IMG/VR virus record: IMGVR_UViG_2541047843_000008 | DNA: 40,690 nt | DNA from: a virus | Taxonomy: Duplodnaviria > Heunggongvirae > Uroviricota > Caudoviricetes | Strand: one strand, 5' to 3' | Shown: piece by piece, positions 9,664-40,690 of the stretch | Position numbering within the stretch: position 1 is the stretch's first letter | How the letters are laid out: the number at the start of each line of letters is the position of its first letter | Translations under genes and position numbers: made by a program | The notes under the pieces: model-generated | Seen by the model: only the letters and a program-made list of their open reading frames with translations | What the model was told of the DNA's origin: nothing | Databases searched by the model: none

Positions 9664-12138
9664 TTATTGCGGAGTGACATCCTGTGGTCGCCACCAGTAT
9701 GTCTGGTTAAACTCTTTCTTCGAACGTTGCTCCATTTTACGCAAATAACCTGGTGAAAAATACTCCTGCATCTGGTTAAAGATCATGTGATCGAGAGCCG
9801 CCTTTAAGTACCAGAGATTCGCACCTGGCATCAGACCTTTCCCCAGCTTAACCAGATCACCACCAGTCTGCTCATTCTTCCCTTCCACAGCATTTAACGG
9901 TATGCCCTGAGCAATCTTCACTACGTCATCAACCAGACCAGCTACCGGGCCAAGCATCGACGCCAGCGCGCCGCTTCCGTACCTAGTGTGATCTGACAAT
10001 AAAAAGTCACCGTAAAGGCCAAGACCACCACCTTTCAGTAGAGCACCAAGCCAAAATTTAGCAGCATCTTCTCCTGTCATCTCGCGAGGATTACGACCAG
10101 ACGCAAGGTCGTTAAGTTGCTGCGACAAAGCGCCAAGAATGGTCGTACTGGCAATAAACGTCGCAATATATGCCGCACGCCCACCAGCCGACGGCATACC
10201 CATAGCGCGTGACCAGTGACGCATAACCACCGAGATAGGGAACGATTTAAACAGGAAAACACTTCTCGTTAATTCACCTTTCCATGTTCCACGCTGAATA
10301 CCAGAACCGGTTATCAGTTGCTCACGTGCACCCGGTGTAATAACAGCCATATCAACTTCTTCAGTTACGGCACCGAGCAGTTTACGCATTGCCTCAAATT
10401 TCACGCGTTCAGGCTCACCAAGATGTTTAACTGCTGAATCAGGGATACGCATAATGCTTTCCGGTGTCAGCATCGTATTATTACCGTTCCCCCAGTCCTC
10501 CTGTTGCGCCAGCTTCCATACGCTCCAGTCTGTGTCAGTAATCCCTTTGCTTTTCAGGATACGAAAATCAGAATCATCGAGGCTACGAAGGTCTGGTGTC
10601 CGTGACACTACTTCTCCCAGGCTTCCCATCATGGTTACGCCATAGGCGCGCTTGTGCGCATCTGACCATGCTGTAAGCCCACTGGCACGCATTACCGCCG
10701 TTGCAGCCCAACGAGACACAGACGGCCCCATATTATCCATCGCCCAGCGGTTAACGCTGCCAAGTAGAGATTCCATCGCCAGACCAGCGCGGCGCGCCCG
10801 CGCAAGTTCTGTACGGTTCGTTGGGTCCATAGCTTCAAGCTGGTTGCGGAATAACTGGTTCATTGGAAGGTTGGTAACCTTCGCAGACAGATACATGGTT
10901 CCAAGATCAGAGAACGATGACAGCAACGCGGATCCGAGTCTGCTGGCAACCAGCCAGTTGCGGATATTGTCAGACCATCGCGCGATGTGCGGATTCGCTA
11001 CAGGCTGTGTCTTTCCGGAAATAAAGTTGTACAGATTCTCTGTGTTGTTCGCCAGCCGCTCGACTTTACCGGTTTTACTCGGGTTAGCTGTTGCCGTTTC
11101 TGCCTTCACCTGATCAAGAAGAGAGCGGAAAACATGATCGGGGTTTGGGCCATATGTTTCCACCAGTGCAATATCTTTACTGATACCTTCCAGGTGACCG
11201 ACCATGATTTCCCATAGAGAGCGATCGCCATAAAGTTGCTGATATTGCAGATAGGAATCTGCATCTTTGAAATGTATCTGTCGTGATGCATTACCCCGGT
11301 TAGCACGTGCGCCGGAAATTCGCATTCCGGTATCAGTAAGCTTATTCAGCCCACCAGTAGCGATCGTGTTATAAGCCTCTCCAAGAAATGCAGACAACTC
11401 GGCATCGTTCATCAGTTGTCCATCGACTCGGGTATAATATTTGCGATCCAGCTTACCTATAACATCGCTAACCCACTTATCCTTTGATACCGCCCCAACC
11501 TTTTCCATAGAATGATGTTGAGGGAGCCCCCAGTTTTCGAGATAGCCAATGTCCCCACCAGCATCATTAAACCGGCGGCGCAGTAGCTCTGTCACTTCTC
11601 TCCACGCCTTAGCACCTTTTCTTGCTTTAGCATTGCCAGTATTTTGCCCTCGCATTTCATATACCAGGTCACGCACGCCAGCTTCATCTTCAAACAGGCC
11701 AAAAAAGCGAGGATCAACTGCTTCAAATGCCTCCTGCAATTGACTCAATGCATAATCACGAGTGGCTTTTGTTCTGGATTCAACAGAGAGGAAATTCGAT
11801 TTACCGTCTGCATTAAAAGCAATAGTACGGTTAAGAGCGCCAAGTTTCCCATCAGCCCCTTGATAGCTATTGATAAATTTATCCAATCTCTGACGTGCGG
11901 CTATAGTGAGGGCCACACGACGTTTCTTTAATGCCGCTTCTCGCTGTAATTCTTCAGATGCCAATTGTGCTGCTCGATATAGCCGCTCTGATTCGGAAAG
12001 TTGTCGCCACGACATCGGGTCATCACGAGCAATGGAGCGCATATTTCGATAAATGCGGTCTTCAATGTTCTGTATTTCTCGCGCCGTTAACATGCGCTGC
12101 GCCGCCTGCTGGACCGCTTGTATACATTCCTGTCTCAT
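9664..12138 (-). CDS. Internal virion/ejection protein (large, T7 gp15/gp16 position)
   Basis: 824 aa, translationally coupled in a run of large genes between the tail tubular genes and the tailspike. Confidence 0.65.
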   Translation of the reverse strand: MRQECIQAVQQAAQRMLTAREIQNIEDRIYRNMRSIARDDPMSWRQLSESERLYRAAQLASEELQREAALKKRRVALTIAARQRLDKFINSYQGADGKLGALNRTIAFNADGKSNFLSVESRTKATRDYALSQLQEAFEAVDPRFFGLFEDEAGVRDLVYEMRGQNTGNAKARKGAKAWREVTELLRRRFNDAGGDIGYLENWGLPQHHSMEKVGAVSKDKWVSDVIGKLDRKYYTRVDGQLMNDAELSAFLGEAYNTIATGGLNKLTDTGMRISGARANRGNASRQIHFKDADSYLQYQQLYGDRSLWEIMVGHLEGISKDIALVETYGPNPDHVFRSLLDQVKAETATANPSKTGKVERLANNTENLYNFISGKTQPVANPHIARWSDNIRNWLVASRLGSALLSSFSDLGTMYLSAKVTNLPMNQLFRNQLEAMDPTNRTELARARRAGLAMESLLGSVNRWAMDNMGPSVSRWAATAVMRASGLTAWSDAHKRAYGVTMMGSLGEVVSRTPDLRSLDDSDFRILKSKGITDTDWSVWKLAQQEDWGNGNNTMLTPESIMRIPDSAVKHLGEPERVKFEAMRKLLGAVTEEVDMAVITPGAREQLITGSGIQRGTWKGELTRSVFLFKSFPISVVMRHWSRAMGMPSAGGRAAYIATFIASTTILGALSQQLNDLASGRNPREMTGEDAAKFWLGALLKGGGLGLYGDFLLSDHTRYGSGALASMLGPVAGLVDDVVKIAQGIPLNAVEGKNEQTGGDLVKLGKGLMPGANLWYLKAALDHMIFNQMQEYFSPGYLRKMEQRSKKEFNQTYWWRPQDVTPQ

Positions 12139-12143
12139 TTAAT

Positions 12144-13946
12144 TTAACCTCTCAAGAAACACGCCACAGCGACATCAAACAGGCTGGAATCCTGTATTGC
12201 CTGCTCACTTTCCCTGTTCGCTTCATCCAGTACTTCACGCGCACTGCGCGATTGTGGATTACCATCATCATCCAGCACGGTGATTATCATGTCCGGAGAT
12301 TCAAGCAGCGAGTCTTCAGCTATACGCAGATCAATATCTCCTGCCGGATCTGCCATCATTTTTTGTTCTGTCTGTTGCAATATCTTACCGGGCTCAAAAG
12401 GAGCTACTTCGTCTGGCGTCCTGACCTCTGCTGTTTTATAGAATGAAACAGCCTGAGCATTAAGTTCACTTTCTGCCTGCTGTCGTCGTGCCAGTTCTGC
12501 TCGAGCTTCAAAAAACTGACCGCCAGGCTCGTGCGGTACCAACGCGTTACGGGAAAACTCCAGGCGTTCTTGTGCCTGCCGGATTCGTTGATCAATATCG
12601 CGAAGTCTGGCCTGTTTATCTGATCGAGCACGAGACAAAGCTTTACCGCTACCGGCTGGATCTTCTGCAAGAATTTGTGCACGCTGTTCAGTGAGATTTT
12701 CAATAATTCGTTGGCTATTAGCGATTTCAGACTGGTAAACCTGTCTATCTCCACGCGGCAAAAGCTGCGCGGCCTGTTCTTCAAGCAACCGATTTTCTAT
12801 AGCGCGCGCCGTTATTCCATCATCTACAGATGACAGAGCCTCATTAACTGCCTGAGACAGCAGACTCTTGCGCCCAGGAATTTCACTGAAAGATGCAGAC
12901 TCAACAATGCTGGCAACGTCTACAGGTCTCCCCTGGCTAACATCAGACATAGCTTTTCGCAGAGCCTGAATGTGAGAATTACGCGAAAGCACGTTGATCG
13001 GCACGCCAGGAGCAATATCAATTTCAGCATGATGAGCGGCATTCGCCGCCAGTGCAGCATCGATATCAACTGGTGAAAAATTTGGTGTGCTTGTAGACTC
13101 GCCGCGAGAGTTAATAAATCTGCCGACACCACCAAACGCCACCCCAAGAACAGCATCAATAGCAATTGCCTGTCGATCCAACACATCATACTGGTTAGCC
13201 ATTTCGCTATAGCCACCATCACGAAGTGTTTTTGCAGTAAGCCCACGCTGTGCCATACCGAACGCAATATTTGTACCTGCGGCATAGGCAATATCTGGCG
13301 TTGCACGTACTGCTGTTGCTGCGGCGCGTCGCACTGAACTCTCACCCGTCCGTGCAAGCTGAGCCGCCACACCTTCCGCCAGCGCACCACCAGCACGTAA
13401 CCCGAGGCTCATAGGGATCAGTGTTCCGGCACCAGCAGTAATGCCCTGCACTAATCCCGCTTCCTGCGCCGTCCTGAAATCAACACCCTGTGCTGTCAGC
13501 CGTTCAAACTCAGAAAAACCCTGTAGCGAAGTTACCGCCGCTGCACCTCCGACAGGACCACCGAGCGTTGTACCGACAACAGCCTGCCCGCCCATATCGA
13601 ACAACCCATAAAGAACCTGCCCGGCGGTTCCGGTTGTCGCGGCATCAGGCGTCAGCCGCTTAACCTGCTGCTCTGCTAGTTTTCTCTGCTCAGCAATGTA
13701 TGAAACTGAAGTGTCATTGAGCGAGGTGTTTTCGTTAACAAACTGAGCAATCGGGGATACGATTTTATCCATCCCTGCCCATAGCAACTGATCTGGCTTT
13801 GCCACCAGCCCGGAGTACAAACCAGACAATGCCGCTCCTACAGCATTGTCGAAAAAACCAACATCGCTGTTAAAGCCAACTGGATTTGATGCTGCTTCGT
13901 CAAGCTGCTGATTCTGGTTTACTGGATTAAGGCCAAAGTAACTCAT
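12144..13946 (-). CDS. Internal virion/ejection protein
   Basis: 600 aa, Ala/Gly-rich N-terminal half and coiled-coil C-terminal half; same operon position. Confidence 0.6.
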   Translation of the reverse strand: MSYFGLNPVNQNQQLDEAASNPVGFNSDVGFFDNAVGAALSGLYSGLVAKPDQLLWAGMDKIVSPIAQFVNENTSLNDTSVSYIAEQRKLAEQQVKRLTPDAATTGTAGQVLYGLFDMGGQAVVGTTLGGPVGGAAAVTSLQGFSEFERLTAQGVDFRTAQEAGLVQGITAGAGTLIPMSLGLRAGGALAEGVAAQLARTGESSVRRAAATAVRATPDIAYAAGTNIAFGMAQRGLTAKTLRDGGYSEMANQYDVLDRQAIAIDAVLGVAFGGVGRFINSRGESTSTPNFSPVDIDAALAANAAHHAEIDIAPGVPINVLSRNSHIQALRKAMSDVSQGRPVDVASIVESASFSEIPGRKSLLSQAVNEALSSVDDGITARAIENRLLEEQAAQLLPRGDRQVYQSEIANSQRIIENLTEQRAQILAEDPAGSGKALSRARSDKQARLRDIDQRIRQAQERLEFSRNALVPHEPGGQFFEARAELARRQQAESELNAQAVSFYKTAEVRTPDEVAPFEPGKILQQTEQKMMADPAGDIDLRIAEDSLLESPDMIITVLDDDGNPQSRSAREVLDEANRESEQAIQDSSLFDVAVACFLRG

Positions 13947-16456
13947 TGCGGAATATCTCCGGAGAATCTCTGACGCTTCTGTGTCAGATCAAGAACAACA
14001 GGAGAACCATCATCTTTCAGCAGATAACCAGTACCAAGTTTCACCAGGTACTGACTATCGCCGTAACTTTGCAAACCATACTGACCAGGCGGTGTTTTTA
14101 TCCCAGAGCCGACAACTTGTTCATTCCAAGTCTGATTAACCTGCTTATCGAATTGCTCTGCAGACATTCCCCACGGCAAAAGGACATTCCCCATTCCGTT
14201 ATAGTCATGCACGCCACCTGTAGCTACGTTAACAGCCTGTTTCCAGACATCATTGTCAATTTCGCCTGATACCACGCCTTTTTTCGCCATCACACCAGCG
14301 TAATAATCCTTTGCGATCTCGTATGCCATTGATGCCCCCTGAGCGTCACCAGCAAATGCATCCTTCACCATGTCAGAAAACTCAAGGCGAAGATCAGCAT
14401 CTTTAGGCATCGGAATACCTTTCGCATCATCAGTACCTTTACGAGCCGCCGCGCCAGCAAGAATTGTCTGCGCAGCGGTTTCAGGAGACACGGAAACATC
14501 CGGATTAAACCAGTTTTTTTCTGCCAAAATACCACCTGGCTTATCCATCAGTATCCCGGCAACGGCAGCAGATGGAGCGTTGGCACTGATCTGCTGTAGT
14601 GCTGACATATACACCTGCCCACCACCAGTGCTCTGCCTGATGGTATCGAGATATGCTGCCTGTTGGGAAACGGGCGCATCACGAAAGAAAACACCGATCT
14701 GATTGGCCTCGTCTTTGGAAAAGAACGTCAGTGGAGTGCCATATGACTTAGCAAGGTCACTGACCTGAGCAGCACGCAAGGCAACGCTCTGTCCAAAGTT
14801 ATCCTTATTGCTCATGTCGATAGGCTTTGTCTGTCCGGCGGCAAGAGAGAACTGTACAGGATCAGCCTGTCGCTGCTTTATCACCTGACTTGCAGCCGAC
14901 ACAACGTTGTCATAAAGAGCGGCTCGTGCCGCATAACCCTCCCCTGTCTCACCAGTATCCGGGCGTAATTGCTCAACATATGCTGTAATGCTGCTTGTCG
15001 GCATGTTGCGGAAAGAGCCTATATACTGTCCGGCGATTTGCGTATTTCTGAACTCGGTATATCGCAGGTTTCCTTCTCTTACTCCATAAGCTGCAATAAA
15101 ATCAGCCTCACCAGGTGGGTTAGGAAATTCAACGCCACGCATATACGCAGCTGTCGCATCGCGAACCTGGCTGTCAATCATCGTTTTATATTCAGCCTGC
15201 TGCTGCCGACGCAGTTGATCCGCCTGTCGCATAAAACTTGCCTGCGCCTCAGGAGATGCCGCATCGAATGCTGCATTACCGGTATAGCGTTTGGTGTTGG
15301 TTGGAATTGTTGATAAACCAAGTGCTGCACTGACACCAGCAGTTAACTGCTGATCACTGTATGGCTGGCTACCGTTCTCATGATGGATAATGGCTGCACA
15401 AAGCGCCTTCAGGGTATCAGGATTAGATGCATCGAGAGGCTCATCAGCAGAAACGCCAAGTTGTTCGCACACTGCTTTGATATACGACATAGTGTCATTT
15501 TTATCAGCAGGCGGTGCCCAGCGATTAATTATCTCGCTGACGGTATCAATACCCTGCCTCTGATACGACATCAGGTTCCGCCCTAATGCACGAATCCCGT
15601 GTTCAGGTGTTTCGAATTTAGCAAATCGACCATCATCACCGGTCTGGCCTACCCACGGATTAGTTTTGCTGTATTCGAGATTTCCTGGGTTATTGTTGCG
15701 TATGCCACGGGCACGCTCGGAAGAGTCACTATCTGCTACAGCACGGCGAGCTCCAGCAGCAGTATCACTTAACTCGCCATTACTTTGGATGAATGCGGTC
15801 GCATTGTTTGCCGACCACTGGGACAATGCAGCATCAGCAACCTTCTCTTTAAACTCGATTTTCTTGGCCTGGATTTGCTCGTTGCTCCAGCCATGTGCAA
15901 CACCGTACTCCTCAATTTGCTGGAAAGTTTGTTTGTTAGCCAATACGTATGCGGCGTTGTCGCCATACAATGCTGCGGCATTTTTACCATTGTTCAGCAG
16001 TGTCGCCTGAAACTGGCCTTCTTCGTAGGCATTAATTTGCCCTATCTCGTGTCGCCCGGCCTGCGTAGTGAACTGAATGCGCTGCTGCTGCGCCTGCTGC
16101 ATGAAAGCATTACGAGCCTGTTCATCCGGCAGCGACATAGCCAGTTGTTCGACCTGAGCATCAAACTGCTGCGTATACTCATGGCCTTTTCCAATAGCAT
16201 TTTTCCCTTTCAGGTTAAGCAATCCTGTTTCAGGATTATTCAGCAGATCGCTGCTTATCTGACTGAGGTTAAGAGATGCCTCCTGAGCCAGAGCGATATT
16301 GGCACGCTGTTTTGCCTGCCCCAAAACATCAATTGCCTCTGTCCCTGCCCGAACAAAAGCATCACCAATACCTTGCTGAGAAAACGTCTGCAAGCCTGCT
16401 GACTGAACTCCACGACTCTCAACCTGACGTCCGGATACTGTTGGTACGACTGGCAT
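13943..16456 (-). CDS. Internal virion protein with a conserved-looking GIRNNNPGNLEY segment (possible cell-wall-active domain)
   Basis: Start at ATG 16456 overlapping upstream stop (TAATG), GGAGG SD; motif at about 15300-15750. Confidence 0.65.
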   Translation of the reverse strand: MPVVPTVSGRQVESRGVQSAGLQTFSQQGIGDAFVRAGTEAIDVLGQAKQRANIALAQEASLNLSQISSDLLNNPETGLLNLKGKNAIGKGHEYTQQFDAQVEQLAMSLPDEQARNAFMQQAQQQRIQFTTQAGRHEIGQINAYEEGQFQATLLNNGKNAAALYGDNAAYVLANKQTFQQIEEYGVAHGWSNEQIQAKKIEFKEKVADAALSQWSANNATAFIQSNGELSDTAAGARRAVADSDSSERARGIRNNNPGNLEYSKTNPWVGQTGDDGRFAKFETPEHGIRALGRNLMSYQRQGIDTVSEIINRWAPPADKNDTMSYIKAVCEQLGVSADEPLDASNPDTLKALCAAIIHHENGSQPYSDQQLTAGVSAALGLSTIPTNTKRYTGNAAFDAASPEAQASFMRQADQLRRQQQAEYKTMIDSQVRDATAAYMRGVEFPNPPGEADFIAAYGVREGNLRYTEFRNTQIAGQYIGSFRNMPTSSITAYVEQLRPDTGETGEGYAARAALYDNVVSAASQVIKQRQADPVQFSLAAGQTKPIDMSNKDNFGQSVALRAAQVSDLAKSYGTPLTFFSKDEANQIGVFFRDAPVSQQAAYLDTIRQSTGGGQVYMSALQQISANAPSAAVAGILMDKPGGILAEKNWFNPDVSVSPETAAQTILAGAAARKGTDDAKGIPMPKDADLRLEFSDMVKDAFAGDAQGASMAYEIAKDYYAGVMAKKGVVSGEIDNDVWKQAVNVATGGVHDYNGMGNVLLPWGMSAEQFDKQVNQTWNEQVVGSGIKTPPGQYGLQSYGDSQYLVKLGTGYLLKDDGSPVVLDLTQKRQRFSGDIPQ

Positions 16457-17001
16457 TATAATCCTCCGGGTAATCTGGTTCCTGCTGCTGCCCCGATTGG
16501 CGCAGGAGTGCTTTGAGTAAACGGACTCCACGTCCCACCAAACATCTGGTACGCACCGTATGCCTTCAGAGGCGCAGTGAGCAATGTTGTTGCTGCTCCC
16601 ACATTCCCCTGTTTACGGGCTGAACTGGCTTCTGCTTTATAGTTGGCAGCCTGAACCTGATAACCGTAAGCCTCGCGTTGCGCGTTATTCACCGTCGTCA
16701 GCGAATCAAGAGCGCCAAACTGGGCAGTGTCGCCAAATATATCCAGCGCGTTACCGGTAGATAAATCGGCGCCGGTCGCCCCCATTGTCGCCGCCTGTGT
16801 ACCAAGCCGCTGTCGGGTCTCTCTGCGCCGTTGCTCAGCTTCAGCGTTACCTCTGTTTATTGCATCATTTGCCTGAGCTGTGGCTATATCTGCGTTCGCT
16901 TCTGCAACCTTCGAGACATACTTTCCCTGTTGGTACTGGGTGTATGCCTGAATGCCACTCATGGCGAGCATTGCGCCACCAGCAATAACCGGATCGCACA
17001 T
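16456..17001 (-). CDS. Internal virion protein, T7 gp14-like
   Basis: About 180 aa, starts MC..., Ala/Gln-rich, C-terminal APIGAAAGT end similar to the T7 gp14 pattern as recalled. Confidence 0.55.
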   Translation of the reverse strand: MCDPVIAGGAMLAMSGIQAYTQYQQGKYVSKVAEANADIATAQANDAINRGNAEAEQRRRETRQRLGTQAATMGATGADLSTGNALDIFGDTAQFGALDSLTTVNNAQREAYGYQVQAANYKAEASSARKQGNVGAATTLLTAPLKAYGAYQMFGGTWSPFTQSTPAPIGAAAGTRLPGGL

Positions 17002-17465
17002 TATTTTCTCTCCATGTGAAATCTGTGGAAATTAAGACCAAGAGCACCATAAGGCGCGGCTTCTTCAAGCCTGAATCCAAGCCAGTGCAGCCATGCTTTG
17101 GCAACATGGTTTCGCTCGTCGACGTAGTTTTCCAGGCGCGGATAAACTGCCAGCATCTGCTGCAATACAGGGAGGCAGTGGCGAAGAAATGTCTTCTGAT
17201 ATTTTTCAATACGGCTGGTTCCTACCAGCCAGGGCGTACCATTGCCACCGATCATTGACGCCGGAGATACGCCAAACATGGTTACCAGTTCTCCGTTCGC
17301 AAATCCTGACCAGGCCATAGTCGCAGTACGCAGACCAACACGCAGCGCATCTTCGGTAGTCATCAGTGATACCGCATACAGTTCGTCAATATCAGCCTGA
17401 CGAACATCCGGCAAAATCATCTGAAGATGCTCTTCGGTTGCGGGAATAATTTGAACATCGACCAT
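17001..17465 (-). CDS. Virion-associated protein (T7 gp13 position), function unknown
   Basis: 154 aa, translationally coupled between the tail tubular B-like and gp14-like genes. Confidence 0.4.
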   Translation of the reverse strand: MVDVQIIPATEEHLQMILPDVRQADIDELYAVSLMTTEDALRVGLRTATMAWSGFANGELVTMFGVSPASMIGGNGTPWLVGTSRIEKYQKTFLRHCLPVLQQMLAVYPRLENYVDERNHVAKAWLHWLGFRLEEAAPYGALGLNFHRFHMERK

Positions 17466-20864: not shown

Positions 20865-20880
20865 ATACACTCCTGCAATA

Positions 20881-29797: not shown

Positions 29798-29880
29798 GAC
29801 CTTCCTCCTTTGGCTTGTGAATTTGTATCGTCATGCCGCTTTGAGTGGTGACTACAACGACAGAACCAGGCTGAAGACTG

Positions 29881-32475: not shown

Positions 32476-33252
32476 TTACTTGATAAATCCTGCCGCCTTT
32501 CCCCGCCTGTATTCCTCCATCAGCCACTGCGCCGGTGTTATTCCCCCAAGGGTGGCGGCGTTAGGCATGCACCCGAAACTTCGCCCTGGTGGATGGTAAA
32601 CGTCTCTCCCTGTGTCCGGAGGTGTACTCATGGGCTCTGGCTTTGCCTGTATGCTGATCACCGGATCGGGTATCTGCTGTCCGGAAGCCACCTTTTTCGC
32701 CCAATCATCGAGCAGCCTGCGCGCGTGTTTCTCAACCTCACTCTCGCTAAGCTGGCGCTGATACATTGCACGACGGGTATCACATACGACCCAGTACATA
32801 ACCGGATGCCGCCACGGGAATCTTTCGGGACCACCAGGATATAAACTTTTTTCCTTGCTGTACCGGTGAAACTCCGCCATCACATCGTCAATGGTGACGC
32901 CAAGAACCATCTTGCTGTCTTTGCACCACTTGATGAATTGCCCTGGCGACGGCCAGAACGGAGATTCACTGGCGCGGGCGTGGCGCATACCAGCGTTAAC
33001 CTGTTCCATTGTAGTGATCCCATTCTCCAGAAACGCAAGCATCCATTGCTTACGGAATTCATTAAGTTTGTTCTGCTCCCTTATGGTCGAAACGCTTGCA
33101 GGAAATGCAGCCTGTAACTGGACAAATAGTTCATTGAAAATTCTAGCAACCTGCTCCTTTTTGCCATTGCTGTCACGCCGCTCTTCATGCACAGCAACAC
33201 CATGCTCACGTAAGCGATCGTACTCATTGAGAAGTTCTGGAGTTGATTTCAT
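32476..33252 (-). CDS. Replication protein P-like (DnaB helicase loader)
   Basis: Long colinear similarity to lambda P as recalled: FPAS...NEFRKQW.LAF.ENGITTMEQVNAGMR.AR...PF.PSPGQF..WC. Confidence 0.8.
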   Translation of the reverse strand: MKSTPELLNEYDRLREHGVAVHEERRDSNGKKEQVARIFNELFVQLQAAFPASVSTIREQNKLNEFRKQWMLAFLENGITTMEQVNAGMRHARASESPFWPSPGQFIKWCKDSKMVLGVTIDDVMAEFHRYSKEKSLYPGGPERFPWRHPVMYWVVCDTRRAMYQRQLSESEVEKHARRLLDDWAKKVASGQQIPDPVISIQAKPEPMSTPPDTGRDVYHPPGRSFGCMPNAATLGGITPAQWLMEEYRRGKAAGFIK

Positions 33253-34066
33253 CCCACACCCCTTCTATCCAGTCAGTGTTATTCCAGTCAAGCTCATCGC
33301 TTTTCCCGGCATTTTTTGATTTTCCCCTGATATGATTTACGTGCCTGGCGAATTTTTGTTCCCACTGAACCTGCGTGAACACTTTGCCCTCAGCCATCCA
33401 GTAATCCCGGAATGCAGCAAGTTCAGCAGGTGTAAATTCCGGTTCCGGCAGGGCCGTTCCCCACAGCGCAGCACGCCGCCGAAAATCTGGCGACGGTAGC
33501 CAGCCATCTGTCATCGGAAATTTCCCGATGGGTTCACTCAGGCCATCCAGAAATTCAGGTTCTGCCACCTGCAACGGCGTACTGTTCGCTTCACTGGTCG
33601 GAGCACCCTCGCGCACGTGCGCTATGTGTGGGGTTTTATATATATCTTCCTCTTCCTCTGGTAACTCCTTTTGTAACGCTGTTGGCGTTACTTTTTGCGT
33701 TACTCGTTTTCGATGCTCTGCCACTCTTCTATTCGTAAGTGCACGTTTTTTCGATGATTCTCCATTATGTCGCTCAAAGTTTGGAAGAATTAGTTTGCCG
33801 TCATGATAAGCAAGCCATCCGACGCTAATGAGGGCGTCAGCAAATCCTGTAATAAAAGCGAGTCTATCAAGTACTCCTTTTGTAACGCTGCCAGCGTTAC
33901 CGTCTATTGTTTGCTGGTCAGCCCATGCCCATATACGAACCAGCTTTCCAAGAACAGCATCTGGATCAATACCCAGAATTTCTGCTATCTGAAAAATTTC
34001 AGGTTTATCAGGAGTGATAACTTCAACCTTAATCCAGCTGCTTGCCATAGGTTTCCCCTCTTGCAC
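33224..34066 (-). CDS. Replication initiator (O-like position), with internal origin-like repeats; start may be internal ATG near 34048
   Basis: Directly upstream of and coupled to the P-like gene; contains two copies of a 27-bp palindromic element. Confidence 0.55.
   Translation of the reverse strand: MQEGKPMASSWIKVEVITPDKPEIFQIAEILGIDPDAVLGKLVRIWAWADQQTIDGNAGSVTKGVLDRLAFITGFADALISVGWLAYHDGKLILPNFERHNGESSKKRALTNRRVAEHRKRVTQKVTPTALQKELPEEEEDIYKTPHIAHVREGAPTSEANSTPLQVAEPEFLDGLSEPIGKFPMTDGWLPSPDFRRRAALWGTALPEPEFTPAELAAFRDYWMAEGKVFTQVQWEQKFARHVNHIRGKSKNAGKSDELDWNNTDWIEGVWDEINSRTSQ
33665..33900. repeat. Two copies of a 27-bp element CTCCTTTTGTAACGCTGnnnGCGTTAC (palindrome GTAACGC-N5-GCGTTAC) plus an extra half-site; candidate origin iterons
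   Basis: Copies at about 33665-33691 and 33874-33900 lie in two different reading frames of the same gene; extra GCGTTAC at about 33696-33702. Confidence 0.55.
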
Positions 34067-34389: not shown

Positions 34390-34620
34390 TCATGAGTAGA
34401 AGAAGTATGCCAGTTCTGCTTTTGAGCGCAGCCATTGTCTTGTTTTACAGGCTTTAAAAAGCCCATTCATCAATACCTTACCTGGCATTTTGCGCTTGCC
34501 TGTTAAGTGAGTCTGGATATAGTGACTCGTCGTTCCGGCTTCCTGTGCGAAGGCTTCACGCTCATCCGGAGTAAGTGCAAGCCAGTGCTTTTTGAAATCG
34601 AAATGTCCGTTATCGCTCAT
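34390..34620 (-). CDS. Cro-like HTH regulator
   Basis: 76 aa, HTH-like segment, divergent from the repressor gene across the operator cluster. Confidence 0.55.
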   Translation of the reverse strand: MSDNGHFDFKKHWLALTPDEREAFAQEAGTTSHYIQTHLTGKRKMPGKVLMNGLFKACKTRQWLRSKAELAYFFYS

Positions 34621-34656: not shown

Positions 34657-34720
34657 TCACCCATAAGGTAACAAAAATCAAGGATAGTTACCTATGAGGT
34701 GCATTTACCTGTTGGGTAAT
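34657..34720. promoter_or_regulatory. Immunity-region operator cluster: three TTACC-N5-GGTAA-type palindromes between the divergent Cro-like and repressor genes
   Basis: TCACCCATAAGGTAA, TTACCTATGAGGTGC, TTACCTGTTGGGTAA at about 34657-34671, 34688-34702, 34706-34720. Confidence 0.55.
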
Positions 34721-34774: not shown

Positions 34775-35359
34775 ATGAAAAGTATCCAGGACGTCCGCAG
34801 GCAAAATCTCAACGACTTGATCGACCGTGAATTCAATGGTGTTCAGACGCGGATGGCAGAAAAACTTGGAACTCAGGCAAATCTGGTAAACCGCTGGGCT
34901 CTTGGCAAGAAGGTTATCGGCGACCAGGTTGCACGAAAAATTGAAGCTGCCGCCAATAAACCCCGTAACTGGCTTGATATTGATCGTTCGCTTTCTCAGG
35001 AGGGTTTTCAGCCTGTCGGCCCGAGCGATATAGGTCAGCTGGCGGCTCACAATCTGGAACGCTGGATGAGCGAAAGCCGCGACCTTTCAACACAGGGAAA
35101 ACTTCACCGCGCATCCGGCGTCGCCCAGGTGACAATCAGCCGCCTGTTAAACAATGAGGTCAGCGTTTCCATTTCCACCCTGGAGAATGTTGCATCCGCA
35201 TTCGGGCGTCACGGATATGAACTACTGATTCACCCGCACGACCCTGCGACTATCAACTATGACCGCTCACGCTACGCATTGTTACCCGAAACCGAGAAAG
35301 CAAAGATCGAAAGTTACATTGAATTTGTCATCAACCAGAACGAAAAAAGCAAACAATAA
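34775..35359 (+). CDS. Repressor candidate with two XRE-type HTH domains and no LexA-like autocleavage domain
   Basis: HTH-like segments VQTRMAEKLGTQANLVNRWALGKK and LHRASGVAQVTISRLLNNEVSVSISTLENVASAFG; own terminator downstream. Confidence 0.6.
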   Translation: MKSIQDVRRQNLNDLIDREFNGVQTRMAEKLGTQANLVNRWALGKKVIGDQVARKIEAAANKPRNWLDIDRSLSQEGFQPVGPSDIGQLAAHNLERWMSESRDLSTQGKLHRASGVAQVTISRLLNNEVSVSISTLENVASAFGRHGYELLIHPHDPATINYDRSRYALLPETEKAKIESYIEFVINQNEKSKQ

Positions 35360-35380
35360 AACTATATTTTTCAGTAAGTA

Positions 35381-35406
35381 AGCCGCCTCATGGCGGCTTT
35401 TTTATT
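35381..35406 (+). terminator. Rho-independent terminator after repressor gene
   Basis: Stem AGCCGCC / GGCGGCT with 5-nt loop followed by 7 T. Confidence 0.6.
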
Positions 35407-35416
35407 GCCAGATAGA

Positions 35417-35493
35417 TTACCTTACGGGTAATTTTTTTAACTCATATCTATTGACACCAAACCAAATAAGCATAATTATTACCTCAACGGTAA
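35417..35493. promoter_or_regulatory. Early (PL-like) promoter region with TTGACA flanked by two operator palindromes
   Basis: TTACCTTACGGGTAA (about 35417-35431), TTGACA (about 35451-35456), AT-rich -10 candidates, TTACCTCAACGGTAA (about 35479-35493). Confidence 0.55.
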
Positions 35494-35512
35494 CAGACCG
35501 AGGTAACAAGTT

Positions 35513-35665
35513 ATGCAGTGGAAAATCATCAACGGTTGGTACTGCGTTACTGCATGCGGATTCATGAGCTGGAAGTTCCGCACCTTACAGGAAGGCATTA
35601 AGTGGGCTTTCGTCAGCAAAGAAGCTCGCGATGTAGCCAACGATAACGAGATATGGGAGGGCTGA
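35513..35665 (+). CDS. Small 50-aa Trp/Cys-containing ORF, first in early operon (below the ORF-track size cutoff)
   Basis: ATG right after the operator; MQWKIINGWYCVTACGF...; stop overlaps next gene's SD. Confidence 0.3.
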   Translation: MQWKIINGWYCVTACGFMSWKFRTLQEGIKWAFVSKEARDVANDNEIWEG

Positions 35666-35667
35666 TA

Positions 35668-35967
35668 ATGAACGTTAATCAGCAGAAAAATCTTCAAAAA
35701 ATCATGCTGGCATTCGACAAGGACTACCGCCTGTCAGAACAGCTATATGACCGACAAGTTGAACTGATTGAGAGCATCCGACTTCATCAACTGTCCTCAA
35801 CTTTCGACGTTGTAACAGGCAAAGGCGTTCGTCAGGAAGTGCTGGAGGCTGCTAAAGACAGCCCTGAGTTCGAAGAACTGATAGATTCCTACCGGCGCGA
35901 GGCAATGGCAATTATCGCCCGCTGGGATCTGGCGGATCGGATTGATGGGCAGAGGGAAGCGGCATGA
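35668..35967 (+). CDS. Hypothetical early protein upstream of exonuclease (position of Gam/Abc-type anti-nuclease)
   Basis: 100 aa, GGGAGGG SD; function unassigned. Confidence 0.45.
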   Translation: MNVNQQKNLQKIMLAFDKDYRLSEQLYDRQVELIESIRLHQLSSTFDVVTGKGVRQEVLEAAKDSPEFEELIDSYRREAMAIIARWDLADRIDGQREAA

Positions 35968-36863
35968 TGCAGAACGCTGGAATCATGGATAGAACAAAAT
36001 ACATCGGAGGAAGCGATGTTGCAGGGATTCTTGGAATTAGCCCATGGCGCACCCCGCTTGAGGTTTATCTGGATAAGGTCCAGCCACGTGTCAAACCAGT
36101 AGACCCAAGCAAGCAGAAAGTTTTCACGCGTGGCCAGCGTATGGAGCCATACGTAATAGACCTGCTTTCTGAGGAAACAGGGATGGAAATCGTTCATCGC
36201 GGAAACCGCTATATCCACCGTGATTACGATTTTATTGCAGCTGAGATCGATGCAGAAGCAGCGTCAGGCGAGAACATTGAGATCAAAACAGTTAGTCCGT
36301 TCAAAGCCAAAGAATGGGGAGAAATCCAGACAGATGCAATTCCTGTGCATTACACGGCCCAGGCCATGCACGGGTTGATGGTTACAAACAAACAGGTATG
36401 CGTTTTCGGTGTGCTTATCGGTGGCGACGACTTCCGAATCTATCGGGTTGAGCGTGATGAAGAAACTATCCAGGCGATCTTAGAAAAAGAAATCGCTTTC
36501 TGGGACCGAGTGAAAAATCTTAACCCGCCGGAAGCTACCAGCGTAAGCGATGTATCGCTGATGTTTGAGAAAGATGCCGGGACAAGTATCGAGGCTGACG
36601 GAAAGGCACTCGCACTATTCAACGATCTACGAGACATGAAGTCACGCAGAAAATCACTGGAAGAAGAAATAGCTATATCAGAAGAGAAGCTGAAGATGTA
36701 CATGCAAGAGCACTCAGTCCTGACCCTGGACGGAAAGCCGCTCTGCACATGGAAATCTCAGATCAGCAACAGATTCGACCAGAAGCTATTCCAGTCAGTA
36801 CACCCTGAGTTATTCGAAAAATTCAAAACAACAACGACACAACGCGTCTTCAGAATGAAGTAA
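35964..36863 (+). CDS. Recombination exonuclease, YqaJ/RecE-like
   Basis: N-terminal YIGGSDVAGILGISPWRTPLEVY resembles YqaJ-type viral recombinase domain; paired with RecT. Confidence 0.7.
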   Translation: MMQNAGIMDRTKYIGGSDVAGILGISPWRTPLEVYLDKVQPRVKPVDPSKQKVFTRGQRMEPYVIDLLSEETGMEIVHRGNRYIHRDYDFIAAEIDAEAASGENIEIKTVSPFKAKEWGEIQTDAIPVHYTAQAMHGLMVTNKQVCVFGVLIGGDDFRIYRVERDEETIQAILEKEIAFWDRVKNLNPPEATSVSDVSLMFEKDAGTSIEADGKALALFNDLRDMKSRRKSLEEEIAISEEKLKMYMQEHSVLTLDGKPLCTWKSQISNRFDQKLFQSVHPELFEKFKTTTTQRVFRMK

Positions 36864-36872
36864 GGAGAAAAA

Positions 36873-37895
36873 ATGTCTATCAATGCACTTAAGGCAGCGG
36901 CTACCGGTAACCAAGTTGCACATCATAATGAGAAACCAACAACTCTGGCCGGACTTCTGGCAGACCCAAAAATTAAAGCTCAGATGGCTTTGGCACTTCC
37001 AAAGCACATGACAGCAGACCGTCTGGCGCGCATAGCAACCACAGAGATCCGAAAGGTTCCAAAACTTGCATCATGCGACCAAGCCAGCTTCCTGGGGGCA
37101 ATTATGCAATGTGCCCAATTGGGTCTTGAACCAGGCGGAGCTCTTGGACACGCTTACCTGATACCGTTCGACAAACGCCAGAAAGTAAATGGAAGATGGG
37201 AAACCGTATCTACAGAAGCACAGCTGATTATCGGCTATCGCGGAATGATTGACCTTGCCCGCCGCTCTGGGCAGATCCTGAGTATCTCGGCTCGTACCGT
37301 ACATACAAACGACAAATTCAGCTACTCATACGGCCTGGAAGAAACGCTCGAGCATTTACCTTGCGAAACAGGTGACCGCGGAGAATTAACGCACGTTTAC
37401 GCCGTTGCACGACTGAAAGATGGCGGAGTCCAATTTGAAGTTATGAGCCGGGCAGACATTGAGAAAGTTCGTGCACTGAGCAAAGCCGGTAGCAGTGGCC
37501 CATGGGTTGATCACTTCGATGAGATGGCTAAAAAAACAGTAATTCGCCGACTATTCAAATATCTTCCTGTTTCTATTGAAATGCAGAAGGCTGTTGTTAT
37601 GGATGAGCGCGCTGAAGCTGGACTTAGCCAAGATAACGCAGCTGTTATCACTGGTGAATATTCCGTAGTTGACGATGAGCGTCAACACCTGTCGCCAATT
37701 TCAGATTCAGAACGAGAAGAAGCTCGAGAATATATCATCGCGATACTTAATAGCCTGGATCCATCTGCTGAAGATGCAAAAACGATGTTCAAGCGCGCTG
37801 AAAATGAGATTAACACCATGGCTGAAAAGCTCGGTGATGAATATCACCAAAAATTCATGATGACGCTTAACGATATGCGTCCAGAATTCGAGTAA
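36873..37895 (+). CDS. recT: RecT-family single-strand annealing protein
   Basis: Central conserved-looking block SCDQASFLGAIMQCAQLGLEPG...AYLIPF typical of RecT; AGGAG SD. Confidence 0.85.
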   Translation: MSINALKAAATGNQVAHHNEKPTTLAGLLADPKIKAQMALALPKHMTADRLARIATTEIRKVPKLASCDQASFLGAIMQCAQLGLEPGGALGHAYLIPFDKRQKVNGRWETVSTEAQLIIGYRGMIDLARRSGQILSISARTVHTNDKFSYSYGLEETLEHLPCETGDRGELTHVYAVARLKDGGVQFEVMSRADIEKVRALSKAGSSGPWVDHFDEMAKKTVIRRLFKYLPVSIEMQKAVVMDERAEAGLSQDNAAVITGEYSVVDDERQHLSPISDSEREEAREYIIAILNSLDPSAEDAKTMFKRAENEINTMAEKLGDEYHQKFMMTLNDMRPEFE

Positions 37896-37944
37896 CCACC
37901 ACCGCGGTGCCACACGCGCCGCACTGCAACCAAGAGAGGTATTT

Positions 37945-38193
37945 ATGAAAGGTGCATTAGGTAAGAAGGAACTCCTGGCGGTGGTGCCACTGTCATGGAG
38001 CACTATCGACCGTATGGAGCGCGCAGGGGAATTTCCTAAACGCTGGTATATCACTGACAAACGCTGCGCATGGAACCGTGACGAAGTTGAGCGTTGGCTT
38101 GATGAACGTCAGGCAGCAAGCCCGGCAGAGTTCCAGGGTAAAAAACCTCCTGTTCAGCAACGTGTATATCGTCCCGTGAGCAACGCTGCATGA
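37945..38193 (+). CDS. AlpA-family regulator/excisionase-like protein
   Basis: LSWSTIDRMERAGEFPKRWYITDKRCAWNRDEVERWL matches the AlpA/Xis-type HTH pattern. Confidence 0.65.
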   Translation: MKGALGKKELLAVVPLSWSTIDRMERAGEFPKRWYITDKRCAWNRDEVERWLDERQAASPAEFQGKKPPVQQRVYRPVSNAA

Positions 38194-38302
38194 GTGCGCT
38201 GCTAAGGCACTGGATCAAATGGTCAGGATGGTACTTATTCCTGGCCTCTGTTTCAGCATGGCTTTATCTGCTGGCATTAATTTTCAGAGAGGGTTGGATT
38301 AA

Positions 38303-38602
38303 GTGAGAAAGTTAAGCCGACTTGAAAAATATCACATGAATAAGGTTTCAATGCGCAGTCCGTCAAAGATTGTCGCCGTTACTCCTGCGGCGATAGAGAT
38401 CGAAAAACGCGCGATTGAAAGAGAGAAAAAAGGGCAGTTCCGCATTGCCGCTCACCTTTGGCTTCAGTGTATGGATGTTGCTTCTGGTGATGTTGAGCGT
38501 GCAAGGATCGCGGTTCGCAGGGACCAATGTATCACAAAAGGTAACGGCCTTCGCCGTGGAGACTATAGCGGTATAGGATGTTGCGGGGTGGTTTATGACT
38601 AA
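38303..38602 (+). CDS. PerC-like transcriptional regulator candidate (start may be ATG near 38336)
   Basis: Segment KKGQFRIAAHLWLQCMD resembles the PerC-family core as recalled. Confidence 0.45.
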   Translation: MRKLSRLEKYHMNKVSMRSPSKIVAVTPAAIEIEKRAIEREKKGQFRIAAHLWLQCMDVASGDVERARIAVRRDQCITKGNGLRRGDYSGIGCCGVVYD

Positions 38603-39245
38603 GAAATACACACTAATCTATGCAGATCCACCCTGGGTATACCGGGACAAAGCCGCAGATGGTAATCGCGGTGCCGGTTTTAAATATCCAGTTATGAGTG
38701 TGCTGGATATCTGCCGCCTTCCTGTGTGGGATTTGACCGCTGAAAACTGTCTGTTGGCCATGTGGTGGGTGCCAACACAACCACTCGAAGCACTAAAAGT
38801 TGTTGAAGCCTGGGGATTTCGTCTGATGACGATGAAGGGCTTCACGTGGATAAAATGTGGTAGTCGACAACCAGATAAACTGGTTATGGGTATGGGACAC
38901 ATGACTCGCGCCAATAGTGAAGATTGCCTGTTTGCGGTAAAGGGAAAACTACCTACGCGCATTAATGCAGGGATCGTTCAGTCATTTACCGCACCGCGGC
39001 TTGAGCATTCAAGAAAGCCAGATATCGTTCGTGAAAAACTTGTGCAATTATTAGGCGATGTTTCTCGCATTGAACTGTTCGCCCGCCAGACGTCTCATGG
39101 CTTCGATGTTTGGGGTAATCAGTGCGAAGACCCGGCAGTGCAACTACACCCTGGATACGCGTTGGATATTGGCGGATTAACAAATGCATTCAGCAATGCT
39201 CCGCTGTCACCAACAGACATCCAGGGGCGAGAGCGTGCTGCATGA
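38595..39245 (+). CDS. DNA N6-adenine methyltransferase, MT-A70 family
   Basis: Catalytic DPPW motif (LIYADPPWVY). Confidence 0.85.
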   Translation: MTKKYTLIYADPPWVYRDKAADGNRGAGFKYPVMSVLDICRLPVWDLTAENCLLAMWWVPTQPLEALKVVEAWGFRLMTMKGFTWIKCGSRQPDKLVMGMGHMTRANSEDCLFAVKGKLPTRINAGIVQSFTAPRLEHSRKPDIVREKLVQLLGDVSRIELFARQTSHGFDVWGNQCEDPAVQLHPGYALDIGGLTNAFSNAPLSPTDIQGRERAA

Positions 39246-39436: not shown

Positions 39437-39439
39437 ACG

Positions 39440-40690
39440 TTATTCCCCCGCCATCCACTTCTCAAACTTCGACGGGGAGAACGGAATCAGATCCGTATGC
39501 TCCCCGTCAATCCATGAATCAATCATATCGGCCCACTGCTGCAACATGTAGGCGCGCTGTCTGGCGTATTCCGCTTTGTTATATACGGCGCGCACACCTT
39601 TCTGCTCATGTGCCAGAGCCTTTTCAATCCAGTCTGAAGGATAACCAGCCTCATGCAACAACGTACTGGCTGTACGGCGCATATCGTGTACGGTGAAGCC
39701 CTGAATATGCTCACCATCTTCATTTATTATTTTCACCGTTCTGTCGATCAGAGAGTTCAGCGCGGCATTAGATAATGGCTTCCGGAAATTGTAACGACCA
39801 GGAACCAGATATTCACTTCCACCAGCGCACATCTGCAACCCGACCAATATATCCTGTGCCTGTTTAGGCAGGTAAATAACGTGCGCCCGGCTTCCCTTCA
39901 TGCGGTCTGGAGGAATTGTCCATGTCCATTTTTTAAAATCTATTTCATCCCACGTTGCATTGGTGAATTCGCCCTTACGAACCATAGTGATAAGCACCAG
40001 TTTTAAAGCCATTTTCATAGTGCCCATAGCACCAATGGCATCCAGCGTGCGGAAGAACAGGCCAATTTCTTCTGGTGTCAGTGTTCGCTCTCGTGGTTTA
40101 AATATGGCGATAGACGAAGGTTTAATGTCAGCCGCAGGATTAAACAAACCATGACCACGGTCATTGGCGTGACGGTATACGCTACTGATGATCTCCCTGG
40201 CCTGCACTGCTGTTGCCCGACCACCGCGTTCGACAATCCGGTCACACAAATCACGAACCATCGATGTGGTAATTTCAGCCATCATTTTGTTGCCAAGAAC
40301 CGGAAGTATGTCACGGTCGATCACCGCCTGCTTCATTGCGCGGGTACTGTCAGCCAGGATGACGTGTTTCATATAACTGTCGGTATGTACCGCAAACGTC
40401 TCGGCACCACGAATCTTTTTGATACCGTCACGTTTAGCCGCAGCCGGTGACTGGCCTGCTTTAAGCAGCTTCTTTGCAGCAATCAGTTCTTCTCGCGCTT
40501 CTGCCAGGCTGATACCGTCACGCCCATACTGCCCGATTACCAGTGTTTCGCGGCGACCGTTGATACGGTAGTCATAGCGAAACGAGACCGTGCCTGACGT
40601 AAGCACAGCTACATACAGCCCGTCACGATCGGAGACCTTGTACAGTTTGTCCTGCGGCTTGAGGTTTTTTAATTTTGTATCGGTAAGCAC
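39440..40690 (-). CDS. int: Tyrosine integrase (P4/IntA-like); start coincides with window edge
   Basis: N-terminus MLTDTKLKNLKPQDKLYKVSDRDGLYV typical of this integrase family; C-terminal catalytic region with R...HDMRRT...Y pattern. Confidence 0.9.
   Translation of the reverse strand: MLTDTKLKNLKPQDKLYKVSDRDGLYVAVLTSGTVSFRYDYRINGRRETLVIGQYGRDGISLAEAREELIAAKKLLKAGQSPAAAKRDGIKKIRGAETFAVHTDSYMKHVILADSTRAMKQAVIDRDILPVLGNKMMAEITTSMVRDLCDRIVERGGRATAVQAREIISSVYRHANDRGHGLFNPAADIKPSSIAIFKPRERTLTPEEIGLFFRTLDAIGAMGTMKMALKLVLITMVRKGEFTNATWDEIDFKKWTWTIPPDRMKGSRAHVIYLPKQAQDILVGLQMCAGGSEYLVPGRYNFRKPLSNAALNSLIDRTVKIINEDGEHIQGFTVHDMRRTASTLLHEAGYPSDWIEKALAHEQKGVRAVYNKAEYARQRAYMLQQWADMIDSWIDGEHTDLIPFSPSKFEKWMAGE

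Follow-up and report, generated by a model that had tools for sequence, protein, structure and literature searches.

An apparently intact Uetakevirus prophage following Escherichia coli chromosomal DNA, with predicted remote homologues of the tail and ejection proteins of phage T7

Kinship between the tails of epsilon15-like phages and that of phage T7 has already been described. Hardies et al. (2016), using PSI-BLAST and comparison of hidden Markov models (HMM-HMM), found the tubular tail B protein of epsilon15 to be related to T7 gp12 with E values below 1e-10, over the central domain only, and tied the epsilon15 internal virion proteins IVP-A, IVP-B and IVP-D to T7 counterparts, with gp17 as the IVP-D homologue (PMC4819975). 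The tails of phages Carin-1 and LME-1 are described as closely resembling that of T7 despite having no sequence similarity to it (PMC12407071), and a T7-like core stack in epsilon15 is noted in a review (PMC8954989). For phage vB_EcoP_ZX5 (ZX5), a short tail seen by electron microscopy, integration at guaA, and the effects of the repressor and antirepressor have been shown experimentally (PMC9782041). Here we examine the prophage in a 40,690-nucleotide stretch of viral DNA, IMG/VR record IMGVR_UViG_2541047843_000008, the whole of which we call the window. An earlier interpretation made from the letters and open reading frames (ORFs) alone, the sequence-only reading, had proposed that positions 9664-40690 hold a mosaic genome, in which lambdoid control and replication genes are joined to a T7-type virion module in a temperate phage of Autographiviridae-like morphotype. 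The features behind that proposal do exist, and most of its homology calls are correct, but the genus is known and the deep relationship is published; the window phage is neither a new mosaic nor a member of the T7 family. We are nearly certain that the element is an apparently intact prophage of the genus Uetakevirus, from the phiV10/ZX5 clade of epsilon15-like phages, which follows E. coli chromosomal DNA, would be transcribed by host RNA polymerase, and owes its likeness to T7 to ancient descent. Earlier publications already cover this group of phages, the site at which it integrates, its regulators, and the remote T7 ancestry of the proteins for tail and ejection.

The relationship to named isolates is close. 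With positions 9664-34000 as query, a 24-kb stretch covering the late genes and the adjoining replication/nin-like region, megablast against 50,697 phage records returned ZX5, HEMP4, O157 typing phages 9 and 10, PAS61 and phiv142-3 at 98% DNA identity over 85-90% of the query, and phiV10 at 98% identity over 79% of it. Enterobacter phage Tyrion and Salmonella phage epsilon15, the latter being the type species of Uetakevirus, matched less well (75-82%). Of the 39.5-kb prophage, some 33.1 kb can be aligned to ZX5 at approximately 98%. When 49 window genes were compared by tblastn, 39 were found in ZX5 and 37 in epsilon15, the latter in identical order, 10-13 in each of BPP-1, Carin-1 and LME-1, three each in P22 and the lambda right arm, and none in T7. 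The Uetakevirus label is that given to ZX5 in GenBank and to epsilon15 in RefSeq. The International Committee on Taxonomy of Viruses (ICTV) guideline for a genus is about 70% nucleotide similarity; the window phage is close in nucleotide sequence to recognised members genome-wide, and has their gene content and order (terS, terL, portal, capsid, adaptor, nozzle, internal proteins, tailspike, lysis, att, int and early genes). The element is a single coherent prophage of a known genus.

The ORF list, composition and tRNA scans place two host genes, E. coli yfgH and yfgI, at the left end of the window, followed by some 39.5 kb of phage genes, so that the element extends from 1163 to just past 40690. 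Its genes form a minus-strand block (1290-34620), broken at 6629-9139 and 26070-26721 by short islands on the plus strand, then an early block on the plus strand (34775-39245) and a minus-strand integrase gene that reaches the last base of the window. Homology to ZX5 starts exactly at the att core (1163-1179), the left prophage boundary, where an exact match to AATCATTCCCACTCAAT is found. This is the reverse complement of attgagtgggaatgatt, the 3' end of guaA and the published core for ZX5, phiV10 and epsilon15 (PMC9782041), and the integration site is thus the one found in Uetakevirus. Over its left 12 kb, the window matches the chromosomes of K1 extraintestinal pathogenic E. coli (ExPEC) and avian pathogenic E. 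coli (APEC), in which the same prophage lies between yfgI and guaA; in strain BEN5202, guaA is just past the integrase gene, and guaA-guaB follow the prophage. The 416-aa tyrosine integrase (39440-40690, minus strand; Pfam Arm-DNA-bind_3, Phage_int_M and Phage_integrase), at whose start codon the window ends, is 99% identical to that of ZX5 and 87% to that of epsilon15.

Could the element be a defective remnant that makes no particles? The attR site lies outside the window, and the accessory modules differ from ZX5 at three segments: 7258-9664, where the antirepressor C-terminus and a YafO-type gene pair differ; 29523-31783, which holds nin-like genes unlike those of ZX5; and 35967-37892, where the exonuclease and RecT alleles are epsilon15-like rather than ZX5-like. 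Nonetheless, every ORF for structure, lysis, packaging, replication and integration is full-length and shares 95-100% identity with its counterpart in the viable ZX5, the differing segments are intact alternative alleles (the epsilon15-type exonuclease and RecT, for example, at 91-93%), and the att core is intact. We regard a defective remnant as improbable.

The gene classes named in the sequence-only reading are all present by Pfam, PHROGs and hhalign, and likeness to T7 gp8, gp11, gp12, gp13, gp14, gp16 and gp17 stands as remote homology detected through families, hhalign or structure, gp15 being the one not recovered. The outcome that it had named as fatal, clustering of the structural proteins with P22 and failure of the gp11, gp12 and gp14 assignments, was not seen in profile or structure comparison. 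For the hhalign comparisons, 11 window families were set against all 21 T7 and P22 families. Searches for nozzle homologues and for the locus in viral contigs gave only copies 82-100% identical, and the profiles were therefore built from phage genomes: seven relatives for the window group (epsilon15, Carin-1, BPP-1, MPK9, Olaya, HTVC024P and KL4), five Autographiviridae for the T7 group (T7, SP6, phiKMV, P-SSP7 and gh-1), and two genomes only for the P22 group. Only cognate pairs scored, every non-cognate pair being at or below 9.5%. A control scan of T7's own proteins placed gp8 in the Pfam family of the window portal, gp14 in that of the 181-aa protein and gp13 in the PHROG of the 154-aa protein; the families of T7 gp11, gp12, capsid, scaffold and terminase differ from those of the window proteins.

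The portal gene (23742-25421, minus strand) encodes a member of the T7 gp8 family (Pfam Head-tail_con, E 1.6e-187), and its profile matches gp8 by hhalign (98%, E 6e-14, 485 columns) and does not match the P22 portal. The 202-aa head-to-tail adaptor (19936-20544, minus strand) is of the T7 gp11 type by hhalign (90%, E 1.5e-6, 191 columns) and by predicted fold: its AlphaFold2 (AF2) model has a pLDDT of 86.7, and a Foldseek search of the PDB ranks the Carin-1 connector and LME-1 adaptor first, then cyanophage and PhiM1 adaptors, then T7 gp11 (7box_M, E 1e-5, TM 0.58-0.60, full length). An HHpred match of gp11 to T7 gp11 is also given in the epsilon15 RefSeq record. The 823-aa tail nozzle (17465-19936, minus strand) matches the Carin-1 'Tail Nozzle' (PDB 8ck1_A, E 8e-218) and LME-1 9efk_M, and its central domain matches T7-group gp12 (hhalign 97%, E 9e-11, 218 columns). 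Neither adaptor nor nozzle, each of which carries the label 'tail protein', has a match in Pfam or NCBIfam, and among the records listed by tblastn against the 50,697 phage records there are no T7-family relatives of the nozzle above 30% identity.

Directly after the nozzle gene, and also on the minus strand, are genes for five presumed internal virion (ejection) proteins. The first is a 154-aa gp13-like protein (17001-17465; phrog_308, E 1e-61; hhalign to gp13 96%, E 4e-9, 131 columns), and the second a 181-aa gp14-like protein (16456-17001; Pfam T7_gp14, E 2.6e-7); both of these carry the label 'internal virion protein'. The 837-aa protein that follows (13943-16456), the homologue of epsilon15 gp15, belongs to phrog_992 ('head protein') and matches transglycosylase PHROGs; it has a central lytic transglycosylase domain whose profile matches the Slt70 catalytic domain (E 2.2e-5), an activity located at the N-terminus of gp16 in T7. 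The 600-aa homologue of epsilon15 gp16 (12144-13946; phrog_1145, of unknown function) is presumed internal from its position, and has no match to a T7 or P22 protein or in the PDB. Comparison with T7 gp15 gave no match: profiles of 5 and of 110 sequences matched none of gp15, gp16 or P22 gp7, gp20 and gp16. The last of the five is an 824-aa homologue of epsilon15 gp17 (9664-12138; phrog_684, 'virion structural protein'), the C-terminal half of which matches the C-terminal region of T7-group gp16 (hhalign 83%, E 8.7e-6, 405 columns) and whose profile finds nothing in the PDB. None of the three large proteins matches Pfam or NCBIfam. In the T7-type virion set, then, the portal and the gp13- and gp14-like proteins fall in T7 families, and gp11, gp12 and gp16 are reached by hhalign or structure only.

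A further link to T7 is in the tailspike. This 1039-aa protein (3394-6513, minus strand; Pfam End_N_terminal, End_beta_propel, End_beta_barrel, End_tail_spike and Peptidase_S74) consists of a gp17-like N-terminal tail-attachment domain (approximately residues 1-175), an endosialidase that is a K1 capsule depolymerase, and a C-terminal S74 chaperone. Residues 1-175 match the N-terminus of T7-group gp17 (hhalign 96-97%, E 1e-9 to 1e-10), with no match to the head-binding domain of P22 gp9; the authors of the ZX5 study also noted a T7-like N-terminal domain (PMC9782041). The tailspike and the lysis genes (1290-3087) that the sequence-only reading named lie outside its stated range, 9664-40690, which omits a second immunity region as well. 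The gene at 9664-12138 was also considered as the tailspike and rejected, being the epsilon15 gp17-type internal protein.

The virion is not of T7 type throughout. The major capsid protein (21750-22742, minus strand) is of the epsilon15 gp7/BPP-1 type (Pfam GP7, E 3e-149); the nearest solved structures are those of BPP-1 (PDB 3j4u, E 1.3e-127), Carin-1 (8cjz) and epsilon15 (3j40), and its profile matches neither T7 gp10 nor the P22 coat protein by hhalign. The minus-strand capsid decoration genes (20541-21698) encode an epsilon15 gp10-like staple (20541-20870; Pfam Gp10-like, E 1.2e-51), the product of a small ORF (20915-21243) and a Bbp16-like cement protein (21261-21698; Pfam Bbp16, E 4.7e-47), and a Bbp19-like protein is encoded among the late genes. 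The terminase pair (Pfam Terminase_2, phrog_2) comprises a large subunit, TerL (26812-28287), and a small subunit, TerS (28284-28877; Pfam Terminase_2), both on the minus strand, so that the terminase genes (26812-28877) do lie upstream of the portal gene, as had been observed. TerL has no match of its own in Pfam, NCBIfam or the PDB sequences; it resembles the P22/Sf6 TerL by hhalign (90%, E 1.9e-6, 167 columns), with only 27% for T7 gp19, and a P22/Sf6-like terminase is stated in the epsilon15 RefSeq notes as well. The order of terS, terL, portal, capsid, adaptor, nozzle, ejection proteins, antirepressor region, tailspike, att and int is likewise P22-like and not T7-like.

Between the portal and capsid genes is one for a 233-aa protein (22751-23452, minus strand) labelled 'protease' by phrog_458 and by RefSeq. 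It has no protease family in Pfam or NCBIfam, and its N-terminal half is of low complexity. An alignment from eight phages has only M1, P86, A121, G162 and F203 invariant, with no conserved Ser, His, Cys or Asp, residues of the kind that a prohead protease would need. Since it has neither a protease family nor catalytic-type residues, 'scaffold', the term used in the sequence-only reading, is the better description; from its sequence it looks like a scaffolding protein whose 'protease' label is a propagated misannotation.

We note that there is mosaicism within the genus. In the 20541-22742 region the capsid protein has 61% identity to that of BPP-1 but only 43% to that of epsilon15. Identity to the epsilon15 homologues is as low as 28-30% for the 600-aa and 824-aa proteins (9664-13946), against 81% for the flanking portal, 88% for the nozzle and 94% for TerL.

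These comparisons reproduce each of the points made by Hardies et al. on the kinship of epsilon15 and T7. Judged from profiles and predicted folds, a distant homology to T7 proteins holds for the portal, adaptor, nozzle, the gp13-, gp14- and gp16-like proteins and the tailspike anchor, which are closer to T7 than to P22. Several observations weigh against this interpretation or narrow it. BLASTP between 21 window and 18 T7 proteins gave no significant match for cognate pairs, and profiles or structure were needed to see the relationship. The likeness of the nozzle to gp12 is restricted to about 220 central residues, its AF2 model has a pLDDT of 46 (from a shallow alignment) and was not used for fold searches, and profile searches of PDB sequences with the adaptor and nozzle reach Carin-1 and LME-1 only, not T7 gp11 or gp12. 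The gp14 match is weak, at 31.2 bits against a Pfam cut-off of 27 and 30% by hhalign (E 5e-4, 177 columns), although full length. No kinship to gp15 could be detected for the 600-aa and 837-aa proteins, and their internal role is assigned from position and PHROG labels. Trees in a review place the epsilon15 gp14- and gp16-like ejection proteins as an outgroup or nearer to P22 (PMC8954989). As for the prophage itself, attR lies beyond the window, and the inducibility of the present copy is a prediction from sequence. By hhalign, the families of the capsid, 233-aa, 837-aa and 600-aa proteins matched nothing in T7 or P22, and the P22 tail and ejection proteins (profiled from two genomes) matched no window family.

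A recent and novel mosaic, in which a lambdoid early region has recombined onto an Autographiviridae virion module to give a new temperate T7-like phage, is very improbable. It would account for the remote T7 homologues among the tail and ejection genes and for the presence of a lambda P homologue and Ea22-type genes. However, the complete arrangement is conserved in epsilon15 and many isolated phages, which dissolves the supposed join between lambdoid and T7 parts; no significant BLASTP or tblastn match connects T7 proteins with their counterparts; capsid, terminase and gene order are not T7-like; the RNA polymerase and T7-type replication genes are absent; and the lambda right arm accounts for only the three genes counted above. 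The sequence-only reading was correct that neither an RNA polymerase nor a Q-like antiterminator is recognisable: all ORFs of at least 400 aa are otherwise assigned, none of RNA polymerase size being left unexplained, T7 gene 1 has no tblastn match, and Pfam and PHROGs yield no member of the N or Q families. Its picture of a temperate, short-tailed phage that has no RNA polymerase of its own is likewise sound, but 'Autographiviridae-like' does not suit a phage that lacks the polymerase defining that family. Nor does it have the single coding strand, T7-type replication genes and strictly lytic habit of that family, having genes on both strands, a lambda P homologue with a DnaT-domain protein, and an integrase and repressor. 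A P22-like Lederbergvirus, that is, a K1 prophage of the kind of CUS-3 (which carries an endosialidase tailspike, as does the window phage) with structural proteins clustering with P22, would suit the gene order, the P22/Sf6-like TerL and the review trees just mentioned, but is equally improbable: the P22-type portal, gp4, gp10, gp26 needle, gp7, gp20 and gp16, and gp9 head-binding domain were not found, with P22 profiles drawn from two genomes.

With the element taken as a Uetakevirus prophage, solved homologues suggest how its short-tailed particle would be built and work. An HK97-fold capsid of the BPP-1/epsilon15 type, with cement and staple proteins, would carry a gp8-family portal, a gp11-type adaptor ring and a gp12-type nozzle, and the P22/Sf6-like terminase would package the DNA. 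The gp13- and gp14-like proteins and the three large proteins are presumably packaged as an internal core and then ejected to form a channel across the envelope, one contributing a transglycosylase and another a gp16-like half. Six tailspikes would dock through the gp17-like N-terminal domain, with the endosialidase cutting the K1 polysialic acid capsule. The likeness to T7 would then go back to an ancient shared ancestor of podovirus tail and ejection machinery, and not to recent recombination between lambda and T7. We also note that a K1-specific endosialidase on a prophage resident in K1 ExPEC and APEC genomes targets the capsule type of its own lysogens.

The regulatory genes were described in the sequence-only reading as a repressor/Cro pair with operators, and so they are. 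The gene for a 194-aa helix-turn-helix (HTH) repressor (34775-35359, plus strand; Pfam) diverges from a cro-like gene (34390-34620, minus strand), as in lambdoid phages, with operator palindromes between them at 34657-34671 and 34705-34719. The repressor has HTH domains only, with no peptidase domain and specifically no S24 self-cleavage domain detected in Pfam or NCBIfam. In a scan of the window, 13 copies of the palindrome TTACC-N5-GGTAA were counted where 0.56 would be expected, at 6618, 6999, 8014, 25733, 28880, 28898, 32362, 32424, 34320, 34657, 34705, 35417 and 35479. Copies are found at the repressor/cro switch, past the end of the repressor gene, in the gap that separates the P gene from the next one, and within the antirepressor region; two (28880-28912) are directly upstream of the terminase genes, and one (25733) precedes the portal operon. 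The same motif underlies every annotated 'repressor' site of epsilon15 and is missing from T7, Carin-1 and BPP-1. The half-sites in epsilon15 match even though its repressor is only 43% identical to that of the window phage.

A second immunity region (6672-7941, plus strand) consists of a perfect LexA box, CTGTATATTTATACAG (6672-6687), a small ORF (6710-6967), an operator (6999-7013), Rfam gathering matches to the isrK RNA (7050-7126; 67.7 bits) and C4 antisense RNA (7151-7235; 61.2 bits), and an AntA antirepressor gene (7285-7941; Pfam AntA). The region resembles the immI type of P1 and P22, and its placement between the ejection-protein genes and the tailspike gene is like that in P22. Overexpression of the ZX5 repressor blocked lytic growth and its antirepressor promoted it (PMC9782041). 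The control is lambdoid only loosely, by virtue of the divergent repressor/cro pair, the lambda P homologue and the ea-type genes; classical lambda control, implied in the sequence-only reading, does not apply. The control logic is one of repressor and antirepressor, with an immI-like second region as in P22 and without an N/Q cascade, and the lysis genes follow the tailspike gene rather than a Q gene. All transcription would be by host RNA polymerase, with a single HTH repressor holding lysogeny through TTACC-N5-GGTAA at the switch and beside several operons, including the regions upstream of the terminase and portal genes. Judging from the sequence and the ZX5 experiments, induction would most likely proceed through the LexA-controlled, small-RNA-gated antirepressor and not through repressor self-cleavage.

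Upstream of the terminase genes, the last gene with a named function encodes a 113-aa 'transcriptional regulator' (29185-29526, minus strand; phrog_536, E 8e-55), the homologue of epsilon15 gp49; a 77-aa ORF (28955-29188) intervenes. This protein has no Pfam or NCBIfam match and is not of the Q family, and it is a candidate late-gene regulator. A terminator-like GC hairpin with a T-run lies at 28932-28949 (minus strand), just ahead of the two operators and of the start of TerS, and suggests that read-through from the early-right operon may stop there, with late transcription restarting or requiring a factor. A scan for sigma-70 consensus sequences in the terminase/portal region found no promoter-like sites on the late-gene strand. 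We can entertain, as a tentative proposal that we judge less likely than not, that a single non-cleavable repressor directly silences at least seven transcription units, among them the terminase and portal operons, in place of a Q-type late switch; that the sole exit from lysogeny is the LexA-controlled, IsrK/C4-gated antirepressor; and that the 'protease' is the scaffold and the 600-aa protein a diverged counterpart of gp15. If true, the lysogeny circuit would be simpler than that of lambda, by a mechanism not yet described.

The remaining genes fit the same genus. The minus-strand lysis cassette (1290-3087) contains an Rz-like gene (1290-1772; Pfam DUF2514), a GH19 endolysin gene (1769-2398; Pfam Glyco_hydro_19), a holin gene (2388-2696) and a second holin-like gene (2683-3087), the Pfam holin families found in the cassette being Phage_holin_3_7 and Phage_holin_8, and is 99-100% identical to that of ZX5 and 83-92% to that of epsilon15. 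That lysis follows the tailspike was rightly seen, but the position is only loosely 'T7-type'. A lysis cassette behind the tail fibre is a trait of the wider group, KL4 being an example; in T7 only the holin gene follows gene 17, the spanin genes lying between the two terminase genes and the lysin gene (gp3.5 amidase) far upstream. The early-left operon (35964-39245, plus strand; Pfam) encodes a YqaJ-type ('RecE-like') exonuclease (35964-36863), RecT (36873-37895), an AlpA-type excisionase/regulator, PerC and an MT-A70 methyltransferase; the exonuclease and RecT, 91-93% identical to the epsilon15 alleles, are not in ZX5. Replication had been called O/P-like, which holds for P: the minus-strand gene at 32476-33252 encodes a lambda P family protein (Pfam Phage_lambda_P, E 5e-56; 39% identity to lambda P), but its partner (33224-34066, minus strand) encodes a DnaT-domain initiator (Pfam DnaT, E 1.6e-18) that is outside the lambda O family.

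Two accessory features lie in the plus-strand islands. ARAGORN finds a tRNA-Arg gene with anticodon TCT (26070-26146), which scores strongly in Rfam (73 bits) and also has an annotation in O157 typing phages 9 and 10. An ORF on the opposite, minus strand (26076-26327), carried in ZX5 as a 'hypothetical protein', overlaps it, and either the tRNA or the ORF is probably a spurious annotation. An accessory (moron) gene pair at 8071-8896, annotated in RefSeq as a YafO-type toxin-antitoxin in the same prophage of BEN5202, is absent from ZX5 and epsilon15, and its Pfam YafO_toxin match is weak (E 9.5e-4, under the cut-off).

The window serves as a worked example showing that to call a tail T7-like is not to call the phage T7-like: the machinery of podovirus tails and ejection is an old module that occurs in temperate lineages (epsilon15, BPP-1 and LME-1) whose replication and control genes are unrelated. 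For phage work aimed at the capsule, the K1-specific endosialidase of a K1 ExPEC/APEC prophage is also relevant. Among known systems, the window phage is most like ZX5, phiV10, phiv142-3 and O157 typing phages 9 and 10, in DNA identity, gene order, guaA att core and repressor, and it has the same 1039-aa endosialidase tailspike as ZX5. It is like epsilon15 in its operator palindrome, att site and lysis cassette position, but has only the N-terminal 165 residues of the tailspike in common with it, has no O-antigen conversion genes, and has the lambda P protein that epsilon15 lacks. Bordetella phage BPP-1, Cobetia phage Carin-1 and Legionella phage LME-1 are the nearest relatives with solved virions, sharing capsid (3j4u, 8cjz), adaptor and nozzle (8ck1, 9efk) and structural gene order; in BPP-1 and Carin-1 one giant protein replaces the large proteins after the transglycosylase, and the replication genes and hosts of all three differ from those of the window phage.

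With P22 and Sf6 it shares a temperate enterobacterial podovirus habit, overall layout, a second immunity region before the tailspike, a related TerL, and ea-type genes; it differs from P22 in its portal, adaptor, nozzle, ejection proteins and tailspike anchor, which have no match there, in having no tail needle, in a lysis cassette that follows the tailspike and not a Q homologue, and in lacking the antiterminators of gene 24 (N-like) and gene 23 (Q-like). Unlike T7, it is temperate, has genes on both strands, a different capsid family and a P22/Sf6-like terminase encoded upstream of the portal, and is without a phage RNA polymerase, T7 DNA polymerase, primase-helicase or recognisable gp15. 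It is like T7, at the level of remote homology, in the gp8 portal, gp11 adaptor, gp12 central domain, gp13, gp14, gp16 C-terminus and gp17 N-terminus, all in the same relative order, and in having a transglycosylase within an internal protein, although here it sits in the separate 837-aa protein.

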